Shown here: positions 4,835-57,444 of the stretch, piece after piece
How positions within the stretch are numbered: position 1 is the first letter of the stretch
Layout of the letters: each line of letters opens with the position of its first letter
Assembly: GCA_900770415.1 (NCBI GenBank)
Contig: CAAGKN010000026.1
Coordinates: 109,955 to 173,954, forward strand
Direction: 5' to 3'
DNA length: 64,000 bases
DNA from: Clostridia bacterium
GTDB lineage: Bacteria > Bacillota > Clostridia > TANB77 > CAG-508
Notes under the pieces: model-generated
What the model was told of the DNA's origin: nothing
Seen by the model: only the letters and a program-made list of their open reading frames with translations
Database searches by the model: none
Program-made: the position numbers and the translations under genes

Positions 4835-4879
4835 TTTGGCCTCCTATAATATAAATTTTTAGCAATTTTTTTGAGGTGT

Positions 4880-4908
4880 GGGTCGCCGATGTTGGCGACC
4901 CCTACAAG
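4880..4908. repeat. GC-rich hairpin repeat GGGTCGCC-GATGTT-GGCGACCC-CTACAAG
   Basis: Perfect 8-bp GC stem in an AT-rich spacer between hydC stop and hydB start. Confidence 0.6.
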
Positions 4909-4933
4909 TCTATTCTTTATCAATCGCTTTACA

Positions 4934-5416
4934 TTATTTGTTTTTGTATTCTGCAATTACCTTTTCCATTAATTCTGGTGTTGCTTTTCCATAAACTTCT
5001 TCATTTACTGTAAATACTGGTGCTAATCCACATGCTCCTATACATCTTGTTGCTTCTAGTGAAAACTCTCCATCCTCTGTTGTTTCTCCTACATCTATTT
5101 TTAGGATTTCTTTTGCTTTATCTAATACTTTTTCTGAGCCTTTTACAAAGCATGCTGTTCCTAAGCATACTGCTACGTTGTATTTTCCTTTTGGTTTTAA
5201 TGTAAATCTTGCATAAAATGTAATTACACCATAAATTTCTGCAAGTGGGATTTCTAAATACTCTGAAATTGCCATTTGAGCATGTTTTGGTATATATCCA
5301 TAATGCTCTTGAACCTCATTTAATATTTGTATTAAATTACTTTTGTCCTTTGTGTATTTCTCTAAGATACTATTCATTGCTTCATCTTTTTGATTTCCTC
5401 CACAATTACAAGCCAT
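4934..5416 (-). CDS. hydC: Hydrogenase subunit HydC (NuoE-like thioredoxin-fold 2Fe-2S)
   Basis: CLGTAC...CIGACGLAP cysteine pattern. ATG at 5416 with AGGAGG 7 nt upstream is preferred over the longer track ORF. Confidence 0.85.
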   Translation of the reverse strand: MACNCGGNQKDEAMNSILEKYTKDKSNLIQILNEVQEHYGYIPKHAQMAISEYLEIPLAEIYGVITFYARFTLKPKGKYNVAVCLGTACFVKGSEKVLDKAKEILKIDVGETTEDGEFSLEATRCIGACGLAPVFTVNEEVYGKATPELMEKVIAEYKNK

Positions 5417-5420
5417 TCTT

Positions 5421-6866
5421 TTACCTCCTGCTTTGAATTTTTTCTTCAAACCTATCTTTTTTTATTTCTTTTGGTACTTCTATTGGGTACTTTCCTGTAA
5501 AACATCCCATACAAAAGTCCTCCATTTTACAGCCCTTTGCTATCTCTTTTAAGTTGTCTATGCTTAAGTATTCTAGTGTATCTGCTCCAATAATTTTTCT
5601 TATTTCTTCAACGTTTCTTCCATTTGCTATTAAATTTTCTTTGCTATCTATATCTGTTCCAAAATAGCATACATCTATAAAAGCTGGTGAAGCAATTCTT
5701 AAATGAATCTCTTTTGCTCCTGCTTTTCTAAGAGTTTTTACTATTCCCGCAAGAGTTGTTCCTCTTACAATTGAGTCGTCTATTAATACTATTCTCTTTC
5801 CCTTTATACTATTCTTTAATGGATTTAATTTTAATGCTACTAATTTTTTTCTTTTATTTTGTGTGTTTTGTATAAATGTTCTTCCTATGTATTTGCTTTT
5901 TGTAAATACTAAATCATAAGGGATTTTTGATTCTTTTGAATATCCAAGTGCTGCATCTATTCCAGAGTCGGGTACTGCAGCTACAATGTCTGCATCAACT
6001 GGCATTTGTGTTGCTAAATATCTTCCTGCTTTCTCTCTAAATTCATGTACCCCCATTCCTTCTAATACTGAATCAGGTCTTGCAAAATATATATATTCAA
6101 ATATACACATTCCTTTGGGAGCTTTTTCTTTGTATTCAATTGATTTTATATTTCCATCTTGTACTACTATTATTTCTCCTGGTTTTACGTCTCTTATAAA
6201 TTCTGCACCACATATATCTAATGCGCAGCTTTCTGATGCAAACACTATGTCTTCTCCTAATTTGCCCATACATAGAGGTCTAAATCCTTGTGGATCTCTG
6301 CAAGCTATTAGTTTTTGTGGCGACATTATTACTAATGAATATGACCCCTTTAAAACTTTCATTGTATTTGCAATTGCTTCTTCTGTTGATTTCGCTTTTA
6401 ATCTTTCTTTAACTATAACGTGACAAATAACCTCTGTATCACTTGTTGTTGTAAATATTGCTCCTTGATCCTCTAATTCTTGTTTTAGCTCCATAGCATT
6501 TGTAATATTTCCGTTATGTGCTACTGCTAAATTTCCTTTTTTGTGTCTTATAACTATTGGCTGAGCATTTTCTTTTTTTGAAGCACCTGTTGTTGAATAT
6601 CTAACATGTCCTATTGACATATTTCCTTCTGGAAGATTATCCAATACTTCGTTTGTAAACACTTCTGATACTAGCCCTGGTTCTTTGTGATATGAAATAA
6701 CTCCATCTGTATTTACCGCAATTCCACAGCTTTCTTCTCCTCTGTGTTGAAGTCCTGATAATCCTATGCAGGTAATGTATGCAAGTCTTTCTGGCTTTTT
6801 AGAATAAACACCAAAAACCCCACATTCTTCTTTTATATTATCAAACATTAAAAGTTCCTCCATCAT
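5421..6866 (-). CDS. purF: Amidophosphoribosyltransferase
   Basis: Propeptide then CGVFGV Ntn nucleophile. PRPP loop VLIDDSIVRGTT. C-terminal Fe-S cysteines. Confidence 0.95.
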   Translation of the reverse strand: MMEELLMFDNIKEECGVFGVYSKKPERLAYITCIGLSGLQHRGEESCGIAVNTDGVISYHKEPGLVSEVFTNEVLDNLPEGNMSIGHVRYSTTGASKKENAQPIVIRHKKGNLAVAHNGNITNAMELKQELEDQGAIFTTTSDTEVICHVIVKERLKAKSTEEAIANTMKVLKGSYSLVIMSPQKLIACRDPQGFRPLCMGKLGEDIVFASESCALDICGAEFIRDVKPGEIIVVQDGNIKSIEYKEKAPKGMCIFEYIYFARPDSVLEGMGVHEFREKAGRYLATQMPVDADIVAAVPDSGIDAALGYSKESKIPYDLVFTKSKYIGRTFIQNTQNKRKKLVALKLNPLKNSIKGKRIVLIDDSIVRGTTLAGIVKTLRKAGAKEIHLRIASPAFIDVCYFGTDIDSKENLIANGRNVEEIRKIIGADTLEYLSIDNLKEIAKGCKMEDFCMGCFTGKYPIEVPKEIKKDRFEEKIQSRR

Positions 6867-7689: not shown

Positions 7690-8535
7690 TTAAATATTCT
7701 TATATCTTCTGTAATTTATATATGCAAGTAATGCTATTACTGCTAATATAAAAATTACTGGTATCGTATCTTCTATTCCTGTGTACGGAACATCATTGTT
7801 TGCTCTATTGTCATTTTTATTTCTATTTTCAATATTCTTTACTTGTGTATTTTTTATTTGATTTTTAGTATCCCCTGATTCTGTATTGTTTGGTTGGTTG
7901 TTATTTGTTTGTCCATTATTATTTTGTTGTCCATTTCCAGATGTTCCATTTACTGTAAGAATGACATTGGCATCTGTTACCTTGTCTCCACTTGTTGCTC
8001 CGCTCGAAATGGCATCTGCATCAAAGGCTTCCATGTCTTTGATTAAAATTTCTGCTGGTGTTTCTTCTATGTTTTGCTTTACTTTAAATTTTATTCTTCC
8101 TACTATTTGAGATGTCTTTTGTGGGTCTGATAAAGTACTTGCAAATATACCATTTTGTTCATTTTCTTTTACATGTAAAACATACCAAGGGTTCTTTACT
8201 GTAGTATCTGTATCCTTTTCTCCAGTATATAATATTGACATATTATATTTTTCAAATTCTGTTCCTACTAAATCTTCTTTTAATCCGTCATCTTCTTCGT
8301 ATATAATCTCAAATATATCTTCAGGATACTCTAATATTCCAAAAAATTGAGCAATTCCTGTTGATTTTTTTATATCTGACATAAGTAAATTAACTGTAAC
8401 TGTATCTCCTGATTTAACTGACGTTTTATCAGCAGATATTGTAATTTTACATGCTTCATCTGCAGCATTTACTGTTGTTGCTATTGCTATTAAAATTATT
8501 GTAAAAAGTAAAATTATTATATTTCTTTTTTTCAT
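7690..8535 (-). CDS. Secreted surface protein with C-terminal sortase-type sorting signal
   Basis: Signal peptide, Asn/Gln-rich linker, then VPYTG + hydrophobic helix + RRYK tail. Confidence 0.55.
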   Translation of the reverse strand: MKKRNIIILLFTIILIAIATTVNAADEACKITISADKTSVKSGDTVTVNLLMSDIKKSTGIAQFFGILEYPEDIFEIIYEEDDGLKEDLVGTEFEKYNMSILYTGEKDTDTTVKNPWYVLHVKENEQNGIFASTLSDPQKTSQIVGRIKFKVKQNIEETPAEILIKDMEAFDADAISSGATSGDKVTDANVILTVNGTSGNGQQNNNGQTNNNQPNNTESGDTKNQIKNTQVKNIENRNKNDNRANNDVPYTGIEDTIPVIFILAVIALLAYINYRRYKNI

Positions 8536-39896: not shown

Positions 39897-40031
39897 ATGG
39901 ACTATAAGTGTGACATTTGTGGATTCGTTTATGATGAAAGCAAAGAAGCAGTTAAATTTGAAGACTTACCAACTGACTGGGTTTGCCCAATTTGCGGTAC
40001 AAGTAAAAATTCTTTTTCTGAAGTAAAATAA
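39897..40031 (+). CDS. Rubredoxin (44 aa), absent from the supplied ORF track
   Basis: MDYKCDICGFVYDE...DLPTDWVCPICGTSK: two CxxCG knuckles. RBS AGAAGGGA. Followed by hairpin 40044..40076. Confidence 0.85.
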   Translation: MDYKCDICGFVYDESKEAVKFEDLPTDWVCPICGTSKNSFSEVK

Positions 40032-40079
40032 ATAAAAATATATAAATAGCTTACAAGTAAAACTTGCAAGCTATTATTT

Positions 40080-48003: not shown

Positions 48004-50178
48004 CTATGCAAAAAAATGCGGAAATCCATCATACATTTTAATTTTGTTTTCTAATTCTTTATGACAATAGAAATCACTTCCATATCCAAAGTTTATTGGT
48101 ATCAATTTGTTTGAAAAAGCCCTAACAACATGAATTTGCTTCATAATAGGCTTGTACTCCATAAAAACAATATCTAAATCTTCTATCTGTCCTTGTTTTT
48201 CTAATTTTATATTATTAGCTTCTACACTATTACCCGTAAATAGAAATTTCACCTTGCTAGATTGATCAGAATAAGCATATAAATTTCCATGTTCTACAGG
48301 AGTACAAACATTCTGAGGTAATATATTTATTTTTTCAGTATTTTCAGAATAAACTATTATTGAATATTCCATTTCATTAAAAGCTTTTTGAATAGCTTCA
48401 TTTATATTATCAAATGAAGTAGCTGCTCCACTTACAAAATATGGTATGCAATCATCTCTGGTCGCACATATAAGTATAGAAAACGCATATAAGTTAGATA
48501 ATGATAAAACCGATATAGAAAATCCTTTATCTTCATATTTATTTATTCGCTTTTGAATGTTTATTGGCAATGAAGTATGACTTATTTTATTAGGAACACT
48601 TTTTAGTAACCATGTTCTCATTAGGGCATCTCTTTCTAATAATTCTGCAACTGCTGATTTTTTTGCTTCATCCAAGTTGAAATGAGCAGCGCATCCGCTT
48701 GAATTAGAATGATGTAGTAATTTTCTACCAACTGACTCTTCTACTAATGGAAAAAAGCAAAAATCAACTGGTATAAGAACTTGATTACCTTTATAATCAA
48801 CTCCTTTTATCCAAAACATCTTATCTTCTTTATTAAAATGCGAAAGATTAAGTTTTCTTATTTGTTCATCTGAATATGGAAAATAGATATCACAATTCAT
48901 TACCTTATCTTTTATTTCTTTTGCACTAGCATGAACATCATAATAAAATCTACCACATATATATCTTTCATATGATTCCATTAATGATTTTGTTGCCGCC
49001 CCAAAAAAAGTTTTATCTATTCCTGTTCCATATCTGTCATTGTCCCTTGATGCTCTAGGTTCAGCTCGATTATAATGTGATACAACAACATTAATACATG
49101 AATTTTCGAGTTCACTATTCTTAACAGCTACAACTTTATCAATTATATTAAGTTTATTGATAAGTTCTTCTTCGAAATTATCAAAATCAATTTTATTTTT
49201 TTCATTATTATTTTTTATACTATCTGATGAATAGCCTATTGCAATGCATGCTATTGGTAATAATTCATTTTTTAATCCTATTAAATTAGAAATTGCCACA
49301 TCTTTGAATCCTCCATATTCTATTGAATTAACTTTCTGTTCTATTGCCTCAACTGTTATATTTTGCAACACATGTCCTACTTCTAATAATGTAAATCTAT
49401 AGCCTCTATTTGAATATTTAGACATATGTCTATTTAAATCCGCTGCAATTACAAATATACATGGAGCTCCAAATATGATACTCTCATCATTAAATGCATA
49501 GATCAATTCTTCATCTGTAATATCTGTTCGTATTTGATTTAATTTTTCATTATCATTATCATATTGATAGATTCCTCTTGGAATCTCATTTGTTCCTTTT
49601 AATAGAATTACAAAGATTGAAAGTGGTGTGAGATTTCCTGCAGATGCTACTGGTTTGATTTCTGAACTATATGAACTTTTACAGATAGAAAATATTTTAT
49701 CAGTTGGTATAGCTCTACTATCAAAATTTCGACAAGAATATCTTTTTTCTAAAAGACTTAAGAAATTTGACCTTTTAACATCCTTTAATTTAATTGATTT
49801 TTTTGATTCTAACATATAATTAGGATGGTTGTTTTGTATTTGAATAACTTTTTCATTATTAAGGCGTTGATAATATAAGCTTGGATTAAATGTTAATGAA
49901 TGTGCACATAACATTTGTTTTCTACTATCTACTAAAATTTTTAAAGAAACAAGATCCTCAATAATTGCTTCTATGTACTTAATATCATTTTTTGTATCTT
50001 CTGCTATTCTCTTTGCTATTGTATCACTTGAAAATGTACCATTACATAGATTTATTATTTTTAATATTAAATCTTTATTAAATCTTATTGTAATTTCATT
50101 GTCTTCAATTCTAAACACCAATAAATTTGAATTAGTATTTATTAAGTGAGCTGAATAATATGGATATAAATCTTCCAT
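48004..50178 (-). CDS. TOMM/LAP biosynthesis fusion protein: PqqD-like RRE + SagB-type FMN dehydrogenase + YcaO cyclodehydratase
   Basis: aa about 20-95: ILKIINLCNGTFSSDTIAKRIA...IIEDLVSLKILV. aa about 130-320: RYSCRNF...AGNLTPL...GYRFTLLEVGHVLQN...GGF. aa about 345-724: ...ESYERY...SSGCAAHFNLDEAKKSAVAELLERDA... ATG 50178 after AAGGGAGGA. Confidence 0.85.
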   Translation of the reverse strand: MEDLYPYYSAHLINTNSNLLVFRIEDNEITIRFNKDLILKIINLCNGTFSSDTIAKRIAEDTKNDIKYIEAIIEDLVSLKILVDSRKQMLCAHSLTFNPSLYYQRLNNEKVIQIQNNHPNYMLESKKSIKLKDVKRSNFLSLLEKRYSCRNFDSRAIPTDKIFSICKSSYSSEIKPVASAGNLTPLSIFVILLKGTNEIPRGIYQYDNDNEKLNQIRTDITDEELIYAFNDESIIFGAPCIFVIAADLNRHMSKYSNRGYRFTLLEVGHVLQNITVEAIEQKVNSIEYGGFKDVAISNLIGLKNELLPIACIAIGYSSDSIKNNNEKNKIDFDNFEEELINKLNIIDKVVAVKNSELENSCINVVVSHYNRAEPRASRDNDRYGTGIDKTFFGAATKSLMESYERYICGRFYYDVHASAKEIKDKVMNCDIYFPYSDEQIRKLNLSHFNKEDKMFWIKGVDYKGNQVLIPVDFCFFPLVEESVGRKLLHHSNSSGCAAHFNLDEAKKSAVAELLERDALMRTWLLKSVPNKISHTSLPINIQKRINKYEDKGFSISVLSLSNLYAFSILICATRDDCIPYFVSGAATSFDNINEAIQKAFNEMEYSIIVYSENTEKINILPQNVCTPVEHGNLYAYSDQSSKVKFLFTGNSVEANNIKLEKQGQIEDLDIVFMEYKPIMKQIHVVRAFSNKLIPINFGYGSDFYCHKELENKIKMYDGFPHFFA

Positions 50179-50210
50179 TATTTTTAATCCTCCCTTAAAC
50201 AATTTAAATT

Positions 50211-50250
50211 AAAATCTAGGTTGCACTATAGACAATGTAACCTAGATTTT
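50211..50250 (-). terminator. Terminator-like hairpin between the precursor and the enzyme gene (possible partial attenuator)
   Basis: 12-bp stem AAAATCTAGGTT/AACCTAGATTTT, 16-nt loop, followed on the minus strand by a U-rich tract. Confidence 0.5.
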
Positions 50251-50259
50251 AATTACTCT

Positions 50260-50421
50260 TTAGCCAGCTCCGCAACCAGAGCCACCTCCTGAGCCACAAT
50301 TTCCTCCACATGCAGCTCCTCCGCCACAACCACCAGAACCACATTGTTGAGCGCTATTAAATGTTGAAGCAATTGAAGTGATTGAAACATTTGTAAGAAT
50401 TTTTAAATTTGAATTATTCAT
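50260..50421 (-). CDS. TOMM/LAP precursor peptide, microcin-B17-like Gly/Cys/Ser core (53 aa; absent from the ORF track)
   Basis: MNNSNLKILTNVSITSIASTFNSAQQ-CGSGGCGGGAACGGNCGSGGGSGCGAG. GGAGGA RBS 6 nt upstream (an alternative ATG at 50427 adds MS-). Immediately upstream of the YcaO fusion. Confidence 0.8.
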   Translation of the reverse strand: MNNSNLKILTNVSITSIASTFNSAQQCGSGGCGGGAACGGNCGSGGGSGCGAG

Positions 50422-50674
50422 ACTCATTCCTCCTATGTCATATTCTATTTTTTAGCGTCACTTCTTAATGTGATTAGATTTTATCATAAGCCGACATTTT
50501 TTTCAACATATTTTCCGAATTTTATCGTATTTTATATTGTTTTTTATTTCGCTAATTTTATAATAATAGTTTTTATTTCGGTATTTCATACGTTATATAT
50601 CGTATGTTATACTGTTTATGTGTATAAATTAATTTGATATACTTAATAATATAATTAATTAAGTGGGTGATCAT

Positions 50675-51007
50675 ATGGAAAATGATATTAATATCTCATT
50701 GGGTAAAATATTTAAAACAACTAGACGAGCAAAGGGCTATACGCAAGAATATGTTGCTGAGCAACTCCAACTAGGTTCTAGATATATATCTGATTTGGAG
50801 CGTGGGAAAACTGTCGGAAGCATTCCTACTTTCGTTAAATTATGTAATTTATATGAAGTATCTCCAACTTTTATTCTTCAGGACTATTTAAAAATTAACA
50901 ACGATTTGAGAATAGATCCTGAGTTGATTGGTTTCTACTCCTTAGATTCTAGAGATAAAGAGACCATTATTAATTTAATAAAATTTATGAATTCAAAAAA
51001 AGAATAA
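50675..51007 (+). CDS. XRE-family HTH transcriptional regulator, divergent from the TOMM operon
   Basis: RRAKGYTQEYVAEQLQLGSRYISDLERGK helix-turn-helix. Confidence 0.8.
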   Translation: MENDINISLGKIFKTTRRAKGYTQEYVAEQLQLGSRYISDLERGKTVGSIPTFVKLCNLYEVSPTFILQDYLKINNDLRIDPELIGFYSLDSRDKETIINLIKFMNSKKE

Positions 51008-51013
51008 AAATCT

Positions 51014-51283
51014 TTATTTTATTCCGGCAATTATCAGTTTTGATGCTAGTTTATAGCCCTCAAGGAACTTTTCTTTACATTCTAAACTTACTATTTGTGA
51101 CTTTTTCTCTATATATTTATTTAATATTTTTTTATCTTTTTCATTTAGCTTATTTTCAATTTCTTTTAATACCGTATTACATTCTTTTAGAATTTTACGG
51201 TATTCATCTGAATTTGATAACTTAATATTTACATTAATTTTTCCATTATATAAATCATCCAAAACATCATCTAATTCATTCAT
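51014..51283 (-). CDS. Small hypothetical helical protein
   Basis: ATG 51283 after GGAGGTG. Convergent with the XRE gene. No motif assigned. Confidence 0.4.
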   Translation of the reverse strand: MNELDDVLDDLYNGKINVNIKLSNSDEYRKILKECNTVLKEIENKLNEKDKKILNKYIEKKSQIVSLECKEKFLEGYKLASKLIIAGIK

Positions 51284-51497
51284 ATAACACACCTCCATAA
51301 TTTACAATGCTAATATATCACCTTTTATTTAAATATTTTGTTAAAATTTGTCGAATAATTACTTTTCTTTGTAATATTTTTCTAATCTAATTGTCTCAGT
51401 GTTAAAACTATTTTTACTTTATGAATTCATTTATTTTCTTGTATATTATAATTTTATATAATATAATTAATTCAGATTTATTTTTTGGGAGGGAAAA

Positions 51498-52007
51498 ATG
51501 GAAAAAAATATTGATGTAGCAATAATTATGGGCAGTGATTCTGATTTACCTATAATGAAAGATAGTGCCAAATTCTTGGATAATATGGGAATTTCTTATG
51601 AGATGAAAATTTTATCTGTTCATAGATGCCCAGATGAAGCAATTGATTACGCAAAAAATCTTAAAAATAGAGGTGTTAAAGCAATTATTGCTGGTGCTGG
51701 TGGTGCAGCCCATTTACCTGGAATTTTTGCAGCAGTAAATACATGCCCAGTAATTGGTGTTCCTATTCATTCTAAGGCTTTAAATGGTATTGATTCACTT
51801 TATTCAATTGTGCAAATGCCTTCTGGAATTCCTGTTGCGACAGTTGCAATAAATGGTGCAAAAAATGCAGCTATTTTAGCAACTCAAATAATAGGCGTTT
51901 CAAATGAAGATATACGTAATAAATTAGCTGATTTTAAAGCTGGATTAAAAGATGCTGTTATGGAAAAAGATGCAAAATTACAAGATGTAGGTTATGAGAA
52001 TTATTAA
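51498..52007 (+). CDS. purE: N5-carboxyaminoimidazole ribonucleotide mutase
   Basis: IIMGSDSDL, AGGAAHLPG motifs. Confidence 0.95.
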   Translation: MEKNIDVAIIMGSDSDLPIMKDSAKFLDNMGISYEMKILSVHRCPDEAIDYAKNLKNRGVKAIIAGAGGAAHLPGIFAAVNTCPVIGVPIHSKALNGIDSLYSIVQMPSGIPVATVAINGAKNAAILATQIIGVSNEDIRNKLADFKAGLKDAVMEKDAKLQDVGYENY

Positions 52008-52028
52008 TTTAGAAAGGATTGTTATTTT

Positions 52029-52880
52029 ATGAAAAAAATTAGTAGTGGTAAAGTTCGTGAAATATATGAAGTAGATGATGATAAACTTATGATGGTTGTT
52101 TCTGATAGGATTTCTGCATTTGATTTTATTATGCCAAATCCTGTTTTGGATAAGGGAAAAATTCTAAATAAATTATCTGAATTTTGGTTTAATTTTGTTT
52201 CTGATATTATACCAAATGATATAATTACTACAAATTATGAGGAATTTCCAGACGAATTTAGAAAAGAAGAATTTAAAGATAGAAGTATGCTAGTAAAAAA
52301 ACTAAAAATGCTTCCAGTTGAATGCATTGTAAGAGGATATATTACAGGTTCTGGTTGGGCAGAATATCAAAAAACTGGTACTGTTTGCAATATTAAATTG
52401 CCAGAAGGTTTACAAGAATGTCAAAAATTAGATGAACCAATTTTTACGCCTTCTACAAAGGCTGAACTTGGAGATCATGACGAAAATATTTCTTTTGAAA
52501 GATGTAAAGAAATTTTAGGTGATGAACTTGCTGAAAAAGTAAAAAATGCTACAATTAATATCTATAAAAAATGTGCTGATTATGCTCTTTCTAAGGGAAT
52601 AATTATAGCTGATACAAAATTTGAATTTGGTTTAGATGAAAATGGTATTTTAGTTTTAGGAGATGAAGTTTTAACTCCTGATTCTAGTAGATTTTGGCCT
52701 CTTGATGATTATGAAGTAGGTAGAGGTCAAAAAAGTTTTGATAAGCAATACTTAAGAGATTGGTTATCAAATAATGGATATAGAAATAATCCTCCTACTG
52801 AACTTCCAAAAGATGTTTTAGAAACTACAAGAAATAAATATATTGAAGCTTATGAAAAAATAACAGGAAAGAAATTTTAA
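52029..52880 (+). CDS. purC: SAICAR synthetase
   Basis: GKVREIY, SDRISAFD, ADTKFEFG, DSSRFW motifs. Confidence 0.9.
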   Translation: MKKISSGKVREIYEVDDDKLMMVVSDRISAFDFIMPNPVLDKGKILNKLSEFWFNFVSDIIPNDIITTNYEEFPDEFRKEEFKDRSMLVKKLKMLPVECIVRGYITGSGWAEYQKTGTVCNIKLPEGLQECQKLDEPIFTPSTKAELGDHDENISFERCKEILGDELAEKVKNATINIYKKCADYALSKGIIIADTKFEFGLDENGILVLGDEVLTPDSSRFWPLDDYEVGRGQKSFDKQYLRDWLSNNGYRNNPPTELPKDVLETTRNKYIEAYEKITGKKF

Positions 52881-52920
52881 ATAAATGAGACAAAAGGGTG
52901 TAATTCTCTTTTGTCTCATT

Positions 52921-54042
52921 TTATAACTCTAATTCTTCTATTTCTATTTGTTCTCTATTGTCTATGTCACCAATTATCTCTAAGTCTTTTGCATTGTCTA
53001 CAAATCTTTTTAATTCCTCTTTTGAAATTTCTTCATATTTTTTGTTACTAGCATTATATAAAAAATATGAGTTTTCGCCTTTTAATTTTTCTGCTGGTCT
53101 TAATTTTACAATAGAATGTATTTTAGAAAGGTTACCATTGTTCACTGCTGCATACATATTTATTCTTTTTGCTTCTTCTTTTGAGAAAAAATTTCGCAAT
53201 GTATAAAAATAGTATCTTACATTTTCTAAATATCTTGTGTCTCCATTATATGTAGAAAACTTATCCATATTTTCCAAAAAGAATTCTAATTTATATTTAA
53301 GCACCTCTTCTTCTGGTACATCTTCTCTTCCTTTTAAAACATATTTTTTAAACTTCTCTGGATTTTCTAGTTCTTGTTTTATTCTTTCAAATACATCATC
53401 TGTATATATTCCTCTTTTGTTATTATCTTTTTCAGCTTTGGTGCTATAACTATATCCCAATTTTTTATCCATTCTTTCTATTTCTTCTCTTGGTAAAAAA
53501 GATAAGTTATAACATTTTTTTACTCTGTCTTTATATGTTCGTGAATACATAATATTTCTACTATTCTCTAAATCAAATCCAAATGAGTTTACCCTTTTTG
53601 CAGTTTTTATTCTTGATAAATCGCTTATTAGGTTAGTAATATAGTATTTCCCATCAATATTTGACACTACATCCACATGTGCCCCTGGATTTTCATTTAC
53701 TTTTATTAAATCTGAACTTATTCCTATATCTTCTAATATACTTGCATATAATTCTGCTATAGCTTTACAATTTCCTTGAAGTTCTTTTCCTATTTTTTTA
53801 TTGAATAGGTCTCTTCTCTCTTCAACTTCTCCAAAAGCATTAATAGGATCTTCTGATAAAATTTTTCCTAATTCTATATATGCATAGTAAGCCTCTTCAA
53901 TTTTACTAAATTCTTTGCCCTGCATACTGTTTATAATTTTTTCTTTTACTTGCTTAATTGAATCTTCGTAATCAGGATTACTGCTAGGTATTAGTAATCT
54001 TTTTCGCAGTCTAATTCTTCTAAACCAATCTATTATTTTCAT
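52921..54042 (-). CDS. Hypothetical protein, possible transglutaminase-like cysteine protease fold
   Basis: GNCKAIAELYASIL ... GAHVDVV ... spacing resembles a Cys/His/Asp transglutaminase core. Weak. Confidence 0.35.
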   Translation of the reverse strand: MKIIDWFRRIRLRKRLLIPSSNPDYEDSIKQVKEKIINSMQGKEFSKIEEAYYAYIELGKILSEDPINAFGEVEERRDLFNKKIGKELQGNCKAIAELYASILEDIGISSDLIKVNENPGAHVDVVSNIDGKYYITNLISDLSRIKTAKRVNSFGFDLENSRNIMYSRTYKDRVKKCYNLSFLPREEIERMDKKLGYSYSTKAEKDNNKRGIYTDDVFERIKQELENPEKFKKYVLKGREDVPEEEVLKYKLEFFLENMDKFSTYNGDTRYLENVRYYFYTLRNFFSKEEAKRINMYAAVNNGNLSKIHSIVKLRPAEKLKGENSYFLYNASNKKYEEISKEELKRFVDNAKDLEIIGDIDNREQIEIEELEL

Positions 54043-54106
54043 ATTTTCCTCTATTATTTATAATTAATGAGACAAAAAGGGGCTATCTCCTTTTGTCTCA
54101 TTTTTT

Positions 54107-55540
54107 CTAGACATTTATCTCTACTTTTTCTTCGCTTATTAAGTCTTTATATTTTTCTAGTACTGGATTTACACATTCTTCTATAAAATCTGTTACTTGA
54201 TTTTTTGCTCTTCCGCAAAGGTGATCTGGATTTAATATATGTAAAATTTCTTCTTTGGTTAGTCCAAATGTTTCGTCTGCTGCTATTCTATCTACTAAAT
54301 CATTTGGTCTACCAAATTCTTTTACTTCTCTTCCAGCTTCCATTGAGTATACTCTTATTTTCTCATGTAACTCTTGTCTATCTCCACCTTTTAAAACTGC
54401 ATTCATAAGTATTTCTTCTGTCCCCATAAATGGAAGTTCTTGCATCATATTTGTTTTTATTACGTTTTTATATACTACAATGTTTGATGATATGTTTTCG
54501 TAAAGGATTAATATTGCATCTGTTGCTAAAAAGCTTTCTGGCACACATATTCTCTTGTTTGCAGAATCATCTAGTGTTCTTTCTAACCATTGTGTTGCTG
54601 TTGTTATTTTTGCATCATTTGAAAGTACCATTACATGTCTTGAAAGTGAATTTATTCTTTCACATCTCATTGGATTTCTTTTATATGCCATTGCTGATGA
54701 TCCAATTTGTCCTTTTTCGAATGGCTCTTCTAATTCTTTTTCGTGTTGTAAAAGTCTCATGTCATTTGCAAATTTTGATGCACTTTCTGCTATTCCTGAT
54801 AAGCAATTTAATACTATTGAATCTAATTTTCTTGTATATGTTTGTCCAGATACTGCATATACTTTGTCAAATCCCATTTTTTCTGCTATTTTTCCATCTA
54901 TTTGTTTTACTTTTTCTTCATCTTTAAATAATTTCATAAAGCTTTCTTGTGTTCCTGTTGTTCCTTTGCAACCTAAAAGCTTCATTCTTGATTCTACAAA
55001 TTCTAGTTCTTCTAAATCTTCTAATAAATCTTGCATCCAAAGTGTTGCTCTTTTACCAACTGTTGTTAGCTGTGCAGGTTGAAAATGTGTATATCCTAAG
55101 CATGTTGTTCCTTTATATTCATCTGCAAATTTTTTTAGATTATTTATTACATTAACTAATTTTGCTTTTATAATTTTTAAAGCTTCTCTCATTAAAATTA
55201 CGTCTGTGTTATCTGTTACGTAGCAAGATGTTGCTCCTAAGTGTATTATTGGTTTTGCTTTTGGGCATTTTGTACCAAATTCATAAACATGTGCCATAAC
55301 ATCATGTCTACATTCTTTTTCTCTTTTTGCAACTACATCATAATCAATGTTATTTACATTTTCTTTCATTTCATTAATTTGTTCGTCTGTTATATCAATT
55401 CCTAGCTCTTTTTCTGTTTCTGCAAGTGCAACCCAAAGTTTTCTCCATGTTGAATATTTAGAATCACTTGACCAAATTTTGTTCATCTCTTTACTTGGAT
55501 ATCTTCCAGCAAGTGGTGTTACATAGATTTCATTGTTCAT
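54107..55540 (-). CDS. purB: Adenylosuccinate lyase
   Basis: Fumarate-lyase signature GSSAMAYKRNP. 477 aa. Confidence 0.95.
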   Translation of the reverse strand: MNNEIYVTPLAGRYPSKEMNKIWSSDSKYSTWRKLWVALAETEKELGIDITDEQINEMKENVNNIDYDVVAKREKECRHDVMAHVYEFGTKCPKAKPIIHLGATSCYVTDNTDVILMREALKIIKAKLVNVINNLKKFADEYKGTTCLGYTHFQPAQLTTVGKRATLWMQDLLEDLEELEFVESRMKLLGCKGTTGTQESFMKLFKDEEKVKQIDGKIAEKMGFDKVYAVSGQTYTRKLDSIVLNCLSGIAESASKFANDMRLLQHEKELEEPFEKGQIGSSAMAYKRNPMRCERINSLSRHVMVLSNDAKITTATQWLERTLDDSANKRICVPESFLATDAILILYENISSNIVVYKNVIKTNMMQELPFMGTEEILMNAVLKGGDRQELHEKIRVYSMEAGREVKEFGRPNDLVDRIAADETFGLTKEEILHILNPDHLCGRAKNQVTDFIEECVNPVLEKYKDLISEEKVEINV

Positions 55541-55563
55541 AATATATCTCCTTTTCTTTTATA

Positions 55564-56380
55564 TTATTTTGTTATTACCAATACTGTTTCTAACTTTGAA
55601 AAATCCACTGATGTTTCTACAATTGCATATCTGTCTGTTATATTTTTTGATTCTATTATTTCTTTTATTTTACCTATTTGTATTCCTTTTGGATATATTC
55701 CACCTAATCCAGAAGTTTCTATTGTATCTTCTAAAACTAGGTCGGCATCTGTTGGAATATACATTAATTTTAATGTATTACTGCTTCCGTAAAATTCCTC
55801 TTACAATTACGCTATCTCTTGATGTTGTAATTGTTCCGCTTATATTAGTTGCTGGATCTATTATTGGTTGAACTTTTGCAGTGTTTTCTGTTACAGACAT
55901 AATGTATCCAACTAATCCTTGTTCTGTAATAACTGGCATATCTACATCTATTCCACTTGATTTTCCTGCGTTGATAACCATTGTTTCACTTAAATTGCTA
56001 ACATCTTTATTTATTATATATGCTGGTACAGTTTTGTATTCTGAGTACTTTTCTGCCATATTTACATATTGTCTTAGTGTTGCATTTTCTGTTTTAATTA
56101 TTTCTAATTCTTGTAATTTTTTTTGTAATTCACTATTTTCTTCTTTTAGCTTTTTATTTTCTTCATCTAGTTTATCTATGTTTTCGAAAAACGAATCATT
56201 TTTTGCTATTTTATTTTTTAAATGCGTTAATCCATTTTGCACAGGCATTACAAGTTTACTAAATAAATTCTCTGCACCAGAAAGTTTATTTGTATTTATA
56301 TTGGTAAGCAAAACTAATATAATCAATACTATTATTGTTATTACTATACCTATAATACTTGTTTTATTGTTTCTATACAT
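55564..56380 (-). CDS. mreC: Rod shape-determining protein MreC; needs +1 at CGG 55789
   Basis: TM helix, coiled coil, then ...TSRDSVIVRGIL-G-SSNTLKLMYIPTDADLVLEDTIETSGLGGIYPKG. 817 nt minus 1 = 272 codons. Confidence 0.85.
55786..55789 (-). other. +1 recoding site CGGA (mreC)
   Basis: ATT TTA C|GGA AGC AGT = I-L-G-S-S. Joins ORFs 55778..56380 and 55564..55764. Confidence 0.6.
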
Positions 56381-56406
56381 CGCTGTAATCCTTTCTTATT
56401 TATTGT

Positions 56407-57444
56407 TTATCTACGTTTACGCGCATTTATAAGAACAGTTTTTAATCTTTCTAAGTCTTCTAAAGTTTTTCCTGTTCCTTTTACAACACATTCTAATGGA
56501 TCTTCTGCAATATATACTGGCATTTCTGTTTTTTGGCTTAATAATTTGTCTAGATTTCTGATTAGTGCTCCTCCACCTGCAAGCACTATTCCCTTTTCTA
56601 CTATGTCTGATGCAAGCTCTGGTGGAGTTTTTTCTAATGTAGCTTTTACAACTTCTACTATTTCATTTATTGAATCATGCATTGCCTCTTCTATTTGTGT
56701 TGAAGTAACTATAACATTTCTTGGTAACCCATTTCCTAAATCTCTTCCTCTTACTTCCATGCTTGCTTCTGTCATTAATGGTAATGCACATCCTATTTCT
56801 ATTTTTATTTCTTCTGCTGTTGTTTCTCCTATTGCTAGTCCCATTTCTCTTTTTATATAATTTACTATATCTTCGTCTAATTCATCTCCAGCAGTTCTTA
56901 AAGAGTTACTTATTACAACTCCTCCTAGAGAAATTACGGCAACCTCTGTTGTTCCTCCACCTATATCAACTATTATATTTCCTGTAGGTTCTGCTACATC
57001 TAAGTTTGCTCCAATTGCTGCTGCCATTGGTTCTTCTATTAAGTATACTTCTTTTGCTCCAGCTCTTAAAACTGATTCTTCTACTGCTCTTTCTTCCACT
57101 TCTGTAATACCAGATGGTACTCCAACAACTACTCTTGGTCTACCTGCATTATATCTTTGGCATACTTTTGATACTATATTTTTAAGCATTAACTGTGTTG
57201 CTGTGAAATCTGCTATCACACCATCTTTTAATGGTCTTACTGCTTTAATAGTTTCTGGTGTTCTTCCAAGCATTTCTTTTGCTTCATAACCAGTAGCTAA
57301 AATATTACCACTTCTTCTATCTATTGCTACAACAGATGGTTCTTTTAATATTACTCCTTTTCCTTTTAGTGTAACTAAAGTATTAGCTGTTCCTAAATCT
57401 ATTCCAATATCTTTTGATTTTAGTCCAAATAACATATTTCTCAC
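56407..57444 (-). CDS. mreB: Rod shape-determining protein MreB
   Basis: IGIDLGTANT, actin-fold phosphate and adenosine motifs. Confidence 0.95.
   Translation of the reverse strand: MRNMLFGLKSKDIGIDLGTANTLVTLKGKGVILKEPSVVAIDRRSGNILATGYEAKEMLGRTPETIKAVRPLKDGVIADFTATQLMLKNIVSKVCQRYNAGRPRVVVGVPSGITEVEERAVEESVLRAGAKEVYLIEEPMAAAIGANLDVAEPTGNIIVDIGGGTTEVAVISLGGVVISNSLRTAGDELDEDIVNYIKREMGLAIGETTAEEIKIEIGCALPLMTEASMEVRGRDLGNGLPRNVIVTSTQIEEAMHDSINEIVEVVKATLEKTPPELASDIVEKGIVLAGGGALIRNLDKLLSQKTEMPVYIAEDPLECVVKGTGKTLEDLERLKTVLINARKRR

Follow-up and report, generated by a model that had tools for sequence, protein, structure and literature searches.

What does a small, glycine-rich open reading frame (ORF) beside a putative azole synthetase gene produce in a gut bacterium, and on what would the product act? 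The question is raised by a stretch of 64,000 nucleotides (nt) from a Clostridia bacterium (assembly GCA_900770415.1, contig CAAGKN010000026.1), here called the window, whose host belongs to an uncultured lineage of gut Clostridia with 28% G+C. On the minus strand, at 50260..50421, the window encodes a peptide of 53 amino acids (aa), which an earlier note on this DNA had taken for the unannotated precursor of a microcin-B17-like azole peptide. It is highly probable that this ORF specifies a precursor which the fused enzyme encoded next to it converts into a linear azole peptide. The part of the proposal that makes the ABC-F gene next to the enzyme an immunity gene, and the ribosome the target, stands at about an even chance. 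The locus as a whole is best described as likely to specify a ribosome-targeting azole peptide with ABC-F self-immunity, made by the fused enzyme. The locus is set apart by the single-polypeptide minimal azole synthetase, the hyper-conserved Gly-rich core and the ABC-F gene in a Clostridia operon. Related loci are designated by L and a number.

The precursor gene and its expression signals are the following.

50260..50421, minus strand: precursor peptide gene, recognized by its translation; orthologues adjoin the fusion enzyme gene in L081, L083, L087, L104 and L115.
50428..50433, minus strand: ribosome-binding site GGAGGA, 6 nt ahead of the ATG at 50421; GGAGG is also found upstream of orthologous precursors.
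50478..50506, minus strand: promoter-like site, TTGAAA-17 nt-TG-extended TAAAAT, the top score in the scan (10/12 with the TG extension).
50207..50254, minus strand: stem-loop and T-run directly 3′ of the precursor stop (free energy −20.7 kcal/mol, z = −6.7 against shuffles).

The translation is MNNSNLKILTNVSITSIASTFNSAQQCGSGGCGGGAACGGNCGSGGGSGCGAG, followed by TAA. A 26-aa leader carrying an LKILTNV motif precedes a 27-aa core, CGSGGCGGGAACGGNCGSGGGSGCGAG, which is composed of 15 Gly, 5 Cys, 3 Ser, 3 Ala and 1 Asn and in which Cys and Ser are never adjacent. The leader, earlier described as hydrophilic, is indeed polar and uncharged, but it includes an alternating hydrophobic stretch, LKILTNVSI. 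An alternative in-frame ATG at 50427 abuts the ribosome-binding site and for this reason is a poorer, less likely start than the ATG at 50421. The promoter pattern TTGAAA-17-TGnTAnAnT, placed 55–75 nt upstream of the precursor start, is common to the window, L087, L081, L083 and L104; the cassette in L094 has a related promoter, TTGACA-17-TATAAT, at the equivalent position. Abutting the −35 of the precursor promoter is an element, AAAATACGATAAAATTCGGAAAA (50530..50555, minus strand), with equivalents in L087, L081 and L094; it holds an imperfect inverted repeat, CGA-N7-TCG, and may serve a divergent XRE regulator as its operator.

The hairpin sequence, AGGTTACATTG..CAATGTAACCT, is kept in all related loci and survives as a relic in L089 and L097, both of which are without the precursor. 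In other operons for peptides synthesized on ribosomes and then modified post-translationally (RiPPs), attenuating or stabilizing hairpins lie between the precursor and the modification genes. By analogy, the window hairpin would fit this type and is probably a leaky terminator or an mRNA stabilizer that sets the precursor-to-enzyme ratio. An Rfam search over the whole window found no family at gathering score, and hence no known riboswitch or attenuator.

The length of the ORF is not by itself significant, since ORFs of 30–60 codons are abundant in a genome of 28.2% G+C. Composition is the stronger signal. Across all six frames of the 64 kb, no segment other than the core combines at least 9 Gly with at least 3 Cys in a stretch of 22 residues. 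The G+C content of the core is 60.5%, compared to 24.4% in the leader, about 27% in neighboring genes and 28.2% in the window. Orthologues beside the same enzyme gene were found in L081/L001 (MNQANLKILTDVLIKPINIGLNGSQQCGAGGCGGGAACGGNCGSGGGSGCGGG), L083 (MISTNLKVLTNVSISSINAGFNASEQCGSGGCGGGAACGGNCGSGGGAGCGGGK) and L087 (MNNANLKVLTDISIKPINAMFNGAQQCGAGGCGGGAACGGNCGSGGGSGCGAG). When the window gene is compared with these three, the 27 core codons have 11–16 synonymous and 1–3 non-synonymous differences, and the 26 leader codons have 3–5 synonymous and 8–12 non-synonymous differences. The core is almost invariant over the four species-level loci despite the codon differences. Because the latter are mostly synonymous, the comparison of codons shows the precursor gene to be under purifying selection. 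The usual pattern in RiPPs is the reverse of a frozen core with a drifting leader, and the pattern seen here suggests a tightly constrained molecular target.

An NCBIfam scan of the precursor at E ≤ 1 gave a spurious TafF match alone, with no match to the heterocycloanthracin/sonorensin model TIGR03601, and a Pfam scan gave no match. The exact peptide is absent from a collection of 15 billion proteins, and in that sense was rightly called unannotated, but close relatives are called there without a name. Orthologue P0165, from a very prevalent second gut species, was found in 878 blocks of the collection, and human-gut metagenomes very commonly contain relatives of the peptide. In other respects the earlier description of the gene stands: the minus-strand frame with its GGAGGA site is borne out by sequence, conservation and codon selection, the gene lies directly upstream of a SagB-YcaO gene, the 27-residue core is dominated by Gly with 5 Cys and 3 Ser, and its dissimilarity to streptolysin S is supported. 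The note made no mention of the ABC-F gene, of an island that varies among strains or of relatives in other phyla.

The enzyme encoded next to the precursor is unusual in its architecture.

48004..50178, minus strand: single-polypeptide azole synthetase of 724 aa, with an RRE-like domain (~1–92; RRE, RiPP recognition element), a SagB flavin mononucleotide (FMN) dehydrogenase (~140–320) and a YcaO cyclodehydratase (~385–724).

The protein starts MEDLYPYY behind a GGGAGG ribosome-binding site, with the precursor gene 81 nt upstream. The SagB part scores above the cut-off for PF00881 and reaches 90.4 bits with TIGR03605 (cut-off 78.4); the YcaO part reaches 97.6 bits with PF02624 (cut-off 25.7). 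With TIGR03604 (SagD) the enzyme scores 106 bits against a cut-off of 219, so far below that the YcaO part belongs to a divergent subfamily. Motif conservation was judged across 18 homologues with 29–74% identity. The YcaO ATP/Mg motifs E401-x-x-E404-R405 and E512-x-x-E515-R516-D517 are invariant, and the FMN-phosphate motif R146-x-S148-C-R150, the pair K254-Y255 and the C-terminal FPHFFA are invariant or nearly so. K254-Y255 is the Lys-Tyr motif known as essential to azoline oxidation in the dehydrogenases of thiazole/oxazole-modified microcins (TOMMs).

Profile searches of the PDB matched the middle part of the enzyme to McbC, BmdC and ThcOx, and the C-terminal part to MJ1094, TruD, LynD and MusD, and weakly to McbD (E = 9.4e-4). 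An AlphaFold2 (AF2) model of the enzyme has a predicted local distance difference test score (pLDDT) of 82.7, and with it Foldseek matched LynD, TruD, MusD, McbD, McbC, BmdC and ThcOx. Residues 1–92, modeled alone (pLDDT 81), form a small beta-sheet followed by three helices. The best ten Foldseek matches to this piece are chains with known RREs (LynD, TruD, PqqD, ThcOx), with TbiB1 and McbB lower; about 83 residues align at ~3 Å root-mean-square deviation with modest E values of 4e-3 to 0.2. The model thus presents an N-terminal domain that appears RRE-like. NCBIfam and Pfam revealed neither an E1-like nor a ThiF-like domain, whether in the 724-aa protein itself or elsewhere in the conserved three-gene unit, related loci included, and the 75-aa linker between SagB and YcaO is too short to hold one in the AF2 model. 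The architecture is RRE-B-D in one chain, and no RRE other than the N-terminal domain is at hand. With PADLOC the enzyme had no match and the ABC-F and XRE genes had generic ATPase or helix-turn-helix (HTH) matches alone, and with no specific match a defense-system reading is unsupported.

Among the hallmarks of linear peptides that contain azol(in)es (LAPs) and TOMMs, the locus has the YcaO protein, the SagB dehydrogenase and the adjacent short Cys/Ser-rich precursor; the E1-like (C) or Ocin-ThiF-like (F) partner is absent. The precursor gene is invariably accompanied by the fused enzyme, whose catalytic residues are retained. In the pathway proposed here, the conserved promoter would drive the operon, and the hairpin would probably keep precursor mRNA above enzyme mRNA. 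The RRE-like domain would bind the short leader at the strand motif LK(I/V)L(T)(N/D)V. With ATP, the YcaO domain would then turn the five Cys into azolines by cyclodehydration, and possibly the three Ser as well; the fused dehydrogenase would oxidize these to thiazoles and oxazoles, each with a loss of about 20 Da, for a total of −100 to −160 Da. A separate partner of the E1 or ThiF type would have no part in this. Leader removal and export are presumed to be host functions, neither being encoded in the unit.

The third gene of the unit is the one from which a target is predicted.

46494..47963, minus strand: candidate self-immunity gene, encoding a ribosomal protection protein (Lsa-type ABC-F) and separated by 40 nt from the enzyme gene upstream.

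The protein aligns over its full length with NF000355 (457.3 bits, cut-off 380), and scores 625.5 bits with the Lsa model NF000167, below the cut-off of 750. The closest solved structure is Lsa(A) of Enterococcus faecalis (7NHK, E = 7.7e-120, residues 1–486 against 1–496); with the housekeeping proteins EttA, YbiT and Uup the E values are about 1e-32 to 1e-45. It is an ABC-F of the antibiotic-resistance (ARE) type, Lsa-like throughout its length, yet of a separate clade because its score falls below the Lsa cut-off. In actinomycete producers of macrolides and lincosamides, ABC-F genes within the cluster serve self-resistance; the model NF000171 represents such producer-type proteins, the TlrC/CarA/OleB/SrmB family.

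An ABC-F gene also stands beside the enzyme gene in L081, L083, L087, L089 and L104. The order precursor-enzyme-ABC-F recurs with gaps of 36–63 nt, and at least five flanking contexts are seen.

Window and L087: flanks on the purE side or on the side of a type IV secretion system pilin.
L081: YitT and Rpn neighbors.
L083: a sigma factor and an HTH gene upstream, NUDIX and recombinase genes downstream.
L103–L108: between the uracil phosphoribosyltransferase gene and rsmD, in the very prevalent second gut species.
L089 and L090: a relaxase/RepA_N mobilizable element, with the precursor missing and its hairpin kept.

The linked ABC-Fs are 80–88% identical to that of the window; they fall in a tight clade at ≥70%, and the next tier is at ≤59%. 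One nearly invariant core is therefore paired with one tight ABC-F clade. In L089 (2549–6268) and in L090 the enzyme and ABC-F genes are on a mobilizable element with relaxase, NikA/MobC, TnpV and RepA_N genes, a truncated RNase_T-like fragment occupies the place of the precursor, and the terminal hairpin alone survives.

The unit has decayed in several places. A 13-bp frameshifting deletion in the enzyme gene of the second gut species is present at three of the six places shown (L103, L105 and L106, 6289–8462; compared with L104), and the frameshifted strains have the precursor and ABC-F genes intact. Another strain of this species, L097 (4714–4967), has lost the precursor gene and most of the enzyme gene. 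It keeps the hairpin, 149 bp from near the 3′ end of the enzyme gene, and an intact ABC-F gene; judged by these remains, the event was plainly a deletion. Upstream of the stand-alone ABC-F genes in L091 and L092, the conserved spacer survives along with the last ~23 nt of the enzyme gene. In L094 the ABC-F gene of this clade lies ~1.3 kb from a cassette of DUF6809 gene, XRE gene and promoter, which drives other cargo. This cassette (L094 7839–9670, also in L095 and L096) has 75–79% nucleotide identity to the window island, and its cargo, a 58-aa peptide rich in Asp, Gly, Tyr and Asn (MAWKDGQDFRNDYPGGYSKNGDVYDGNGNRVGYVCGDGDYHINNDPSNDGQYYHMRDD) and a 245-aa Cys-rich protein without a Pfam match, may represent a further peptide system that answers to this regulator.

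Loss of production with retention of protection is typical of what is expected for a bacteriocin immunity gene. A ribosome-directed product is proposed because of this pattern, together with the operonic linkage across contexts and the pairing of one core with one ABC-F clade. The Lsa-type ABC-F would shield the producer's own ribosomes, and the mature Gly-rich polyazole would act not on gyrase but as an inhibitor of the large ribosomal subunit, with its site either in the peptidyl-transferase centre or at the tunnel entrance. The ribosome is favored over gyrase because the sole conserved accessory gene encodes a ribosome-protection ABC-F. The LAPs klebsazolicin and phazolicin act by blocking the exit tunnel of the ribosome (PMC7136475, PMC6783444), and their ribosomal action is the mode predicted here from the ABC-F. 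These peptides come from Proteobacteria, with discrete B, C and D enzymes, a dedicated exporter and cores that are not Gly-rich; action on the ribosome would be analogous in spite of these differences. Their target was shown experimentally, whereas we infer that of the window peptide. ABC-F proteins are unmentioned in PMC7136475 and PMC6783444.

The precursor and enzyme genes of the window lie on a strain-variable island.

48000..51423: island of 3,424 bp with the DUF6809, XRE, precursor and fusion enzyme genes, between purE and the resident ABC-F gene.
50663..51007, plus strand: XRE-family HTH regulator (PF01381), divergent from the precursor; kept with the island in L081, L087 and L115.
51014..51298, minus strand: DUF6809 protein of unknown function (PF20648, E = 4.7e-16); co-occurs with the XRE gene in L081, L087, L094 and L115.

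In all other conspecific contigs examined that reach the site, the island is replaced by 38 bp; 21 of these carry ABC-F allele P0045 and 14 the window allele, P0040, and purE is 148 nt from the ABC-F gene. The 38-bp filler supplies a −35 element, TTGCAA, 17 nt before the TATAAT shared by both forms of the ABC-F promoter. Because the window island replaces this −35 element, its ABC-F gene is probably co-transcribed with the enzyme gene. An assembly chimera was rejected, since L115, an independent assembly from another sample, matches 51453..47970 at 99.94% and spans both junctions. No clear relic of the enzyme gene was detected in the 38-bp empty site of the window species, where the island may have been either inserted or deleted. 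Identity among conspecifics is uneven, 95.8% on the purE/purB side (51424..56349) and 99.1% on the ABC-F side (43634..47999); recombination with a more divergent strain may have brought the island in, or removed it, as part of a longer tract.

Several of these findings, and others, weigh against a ribosome-targeting peptide with ABC-F self-immunity. The exact ABC-F allele of the window is free of the island on every other conspecific contig examined, and since it is kept there it is clearly valuable on its own. Lsa-type ABC-Fs are common factors of intrinsic resistance to lincosamides, streptogramin A and pleuromutilins. The linkage of enzyme and ABC-F genes without a precursor in L089 and L090 may reflect movement as a block, and the linkage as a whole could stem from one ancestral juxtaposition that moved in this way. 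For a secreted antibiotic it is odd that the conserved unit encodes neither a dedicated exporter nor a leader protease. DrrA/ABC-2 pairs near the unit in L081 and L104 were considered as exporters and dropped as coincidental; they are not adjacent, and the window is without any. In the Patescibacteria branch of the enzyme family no locus has an ABC-F gene and a DUF2268 protease is found instead, and for this reason the ribosome argument is not extendable to that larger branch. Azoline-forming YcaO proteins normally need an E1-like or ThiF-like partner, and there is none here. RREs fused to LAP dehydrogenases are known and are suspected to be vestigial (PMC7470986).

The alternative that accommodates most of these points accepts a real azole peptide and takes the ABC-F for an unrelated, resident resistance gene, with the cassette merely upstream of it; the target could then be the membrane, gyrase, a metal, signaling or something unknown. 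The complete promoter that the empty site gives the ABC-F gene, TTGCAA-17-TATAAT, counts in its favor, as do the island-free copies of the allele, the frequency of intrinsic Lsa-type resistance, the Patescibacteria loci and the mobilizable elements of L089 and L090. This explanation is on the unlikely side. From one species to another the ABC-F gene has no constant chromosomal position, and in at least five contexts it has moved together with the enzyme gene. It stands alone in three contexts from other species: two keep enzyme relics (L091 and L097) and the third (L094) is near the regulatory cassette of the island, although the empty site of the window's own species has no relic. The match of a nearly invariant core to one tight ABC-F clade also argues against it.

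A microcin-B17-type DNA gyrase poison, as the earlier naming would imply, is improbable. Like microcin B17 of Escherichia coli (McbABCDEFG), the window system has a short precursor with a Gly-rich core containing Cys and Ser, a YcaO protein and a SagB-type FMN dehydrogenase that resemble McbD and McbC, and no leader protease encoded in the cluster. The comparison with microcin B17 holds for the composition and for a precursor of the linear azol(in)e type, but not for the family or the likely function. The synthetase of microcin B17 is an octamer of three separate proteins that include the E1-like McbB, whereas that of the window is one RRE-B-D polypeptide with no C protein, and the sequence match to McbD is weak. 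Microcin B17 is accompanied by the McbEF pump and the gyrase-protecting McbG, a pentapeptide-repeat protein, in place of which the window unit has the ABC-F ribosome-protection gene. No McbEF-like or McbG-like genes were found in 40000..60000 or in related loci; the neighbors are the ABC-F, XRE and DUF6809 genes. Bis-heterocycles matter for the activity of microcin B17, and the window core lacks the Ser-Cys and Cys-Ser pairs from which they could form. Gyrase is disfavored because there is no gyrase-type immunity gene, there are no bis-heterocycle sites and the only accessory gene acts on ribosomes.

It is quite improbable that the unit is a toxin-antidote-like addiction or regulatory module, in which an unexported peptide would hit the cell's own ribosomes and the ABC-F would counteract it, so as to stabilize the island or tune translation. 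The absence of an exporter and protease from the conserved unit, its mobility, and a decay that always takes the enzyme first and leaves the ABC-F would suit such a module. A host transporter could nevertheless export the peptide, and the island is easily lost within the species, contrary to what addiction would lead one to expect. We know of no precedent for a RiPP-based addiction module, which also counts against it.

It is very improbable that no azoles are made and that the YcaO domain instead modifies the Gly-rich core in another way, for example to a thioamide or an amidine. The best sequence and structure matches of the domain include the archaeal thioamide-forming MJ1094 and Mk YcaO, and the missing E1/ThiF partner is also in keeping with this idea. 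Against this, the fused SagB dehydrogenase keeps the Lys-Tyr and FMN motifs of azoline oxidases, Cys is invariant in the cores, and the unit has no TfuA or sulfur-donor gene. Finally, a chance frame or dead relic with no product is scarcely conceivable: short ORFs are frequent in the window and some strains of a sister species carry the enzyme gene as a pseudogene, but strong purifying selection on the core essentially refutes this reading, the ribosome-binding site, promoter and hairpin are all conserved, the window enzyme gene is intact, and an independent assembly is 99.94% identical.

A linear azole peptide made by the fused enzyme can also be compared with two other groups of systems. Heterocycloanthracin and sonorensin (TIGR03601) are likewise formed from Gly/Cys-rich LAP precursors of Firmicutes, and the resemblance to heterocycloanthracin pointed out in the earlier note holds for this composition; it does not extend to the family, since the window precursor fails the TIGR03601 model as it does the other precursor families of NCBIfam and Pfam. 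In heterocycloanthracin clusters the cyclodehydratase is a C-D fusion that has a ThiF-like partner, and SagB is a protein of its own. The Cys-Xaa-Xaa type of repeat appears as CGG repeats in L084, a sister clade whose enzyme is 38% identical. There (sites 4841–5971 and 8216–8401) the precursor, MEKKLKVLADVEIVNDKTNFELEKGFGQLAYSYQACGGGGGCGGCGGCGGCGGGRYIDTAK, is downstream of the enzyme gene and has a heterocycloanthracin-style CGG-repeat core; a 376-aa membrane-anchored protein of unknown family is encoded upstream, and neither ABC-F nor DUF2268 is present. ThcOx, a cyanobactin oxidase, and BmdC, an oxidase of a nonribosomal peptide synthetase (NRPS), also have an N-terminal RRE-like domain followed by a SagB/nitroreductase azoline oxidase, but they are not fused to YcaO and act after a separate heterocyclase or NRPS module.

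The fused enzyme is not confined to Clostridia. An exhaustive HMMER search of 1.84 billion representatives gave 288 clusters (50% identity) at E ≤ 1e-30, and nearly all of the top 150 are full-length, at 700–740 aa. In species-representative genomes the full-length relatives are mostly from Saccharibacteria and other Patescibacteria, with fewer from some metagenome-assembled genomes of Bacilli and Tenericutes, one Mycolicibacterium and some Proteobacteria. A small Gly/Cys-rich ORF adjoins the enzyme gene in ~35 of 60 loci (Saccharibacteria, other Patescibacteria, Bacilli, Mycolicibacterium). The recurrent precursor in Saccharibacteria is MKKLLDVKRTPYDVNVAAAGNCGGAGCGSGCGGGCGGGGGSCGGGSGCNGGGGGGCGGGGK, with the pattern MKKLLDVKRTPYDVNV...CGGGGK, and leaders across the family are short and open with a motif of the type [KL][KL][IV]L-x-[DNE][VI]. 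Fusion enzyme and Gly/Cys-rich precursor occur together, for example, in L014 (2476–2661) and L049 (8135–9019), which are among loci L002–L064. A predicted Zn protease of the DUF2268 family, of which there is none in the window, is the conserved companion in 43 loci of the Patescibacteria type and is plausibly their leader peptidase. The fusion-enzyme system looks like a major conserved peptide system of the tiny episymbiont genomes of Saccharibacteria and other Patescibacteria, and is among the few biosynthetic systems that the tiny Saccharibacteria genomes retain.

Searches of the available full-text literature turned up no account of the fusion family, of a link between DUF2268 and YcaO, or of an ABC-F within a RiPP cluster, which is not proof that they are unpublished. 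A census of TOMMs in 2015 required a C protein or a precursor, and the fusion family is not in it (PMC4603692); Travin et al. (2020) explicitly excluded stand-alone YcaO proteins (PMC7136475).

A broader reading, to be held tentatively and at somewhat less than an even chance, would make this the first ribosomally made peptide with ABC-F self-immunity: a Gly-rich polythiazole acting at the peptidyl-transferase centre or tunnel entrance, made by a partner-independent, all-in-one RRE-SagB-YcaO synthetase, and encoded on a strain-variable island of abundant human-gut Clostridia in which non-producers keep orphan immunity. If so, part of the intrinsic Lsa-type resistance of gut Firmicutes would be defense against a neighbor's peptide, and the DUF2268 sister branch would be a major conserved secondary-metabolite system of Saccharibacteria. 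The sole conserved accessory gene leads to a testable prediction, that the peptide should inhibit translation. If this holds, ABC-F-guided mining would extend to RiPPs, and Lsa-type genes in gut Firmicutes would gain a natural ligand. For enzymology, the question is how azoles are seemingly made without the partner thought to be needed by nearly all azoline-forming YcaO proteins, and with all functions in one 724-aa chain the enzyme would be compact enough to serve as a tool in peptide engineering. Within a species, producers coexist with frameshifted ex-producers and with immunity-only strains, which offers a natural system for the population dynamics of bacteriocins.

Elsewhere in the window there are two more strain-specific insertions relative to conspecific contigs. 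The first, 42436..43143, encodes a ParE-family toxin (42533..42823, PF05016) and a small upstream ORF (42792..43016), which is probably its antitoxin; the second, 43271..43633, holds a 94-aa ORF of unknown function (43285..43569). At 43638..46333 an operon for an NMT1-type ABC transporter (nitrate/sulfonate/taurine-like), intact in L087, is fragmented: the ATPase is left in pieces of 53 and 177 aa and the binding protein in pieces of 101 and 246 aa, and the permease is likewise in pieces. Sequencing error was rejected as the cause, since the same fragments are present in all conspecific assemblies, and these are real pseudogenes.

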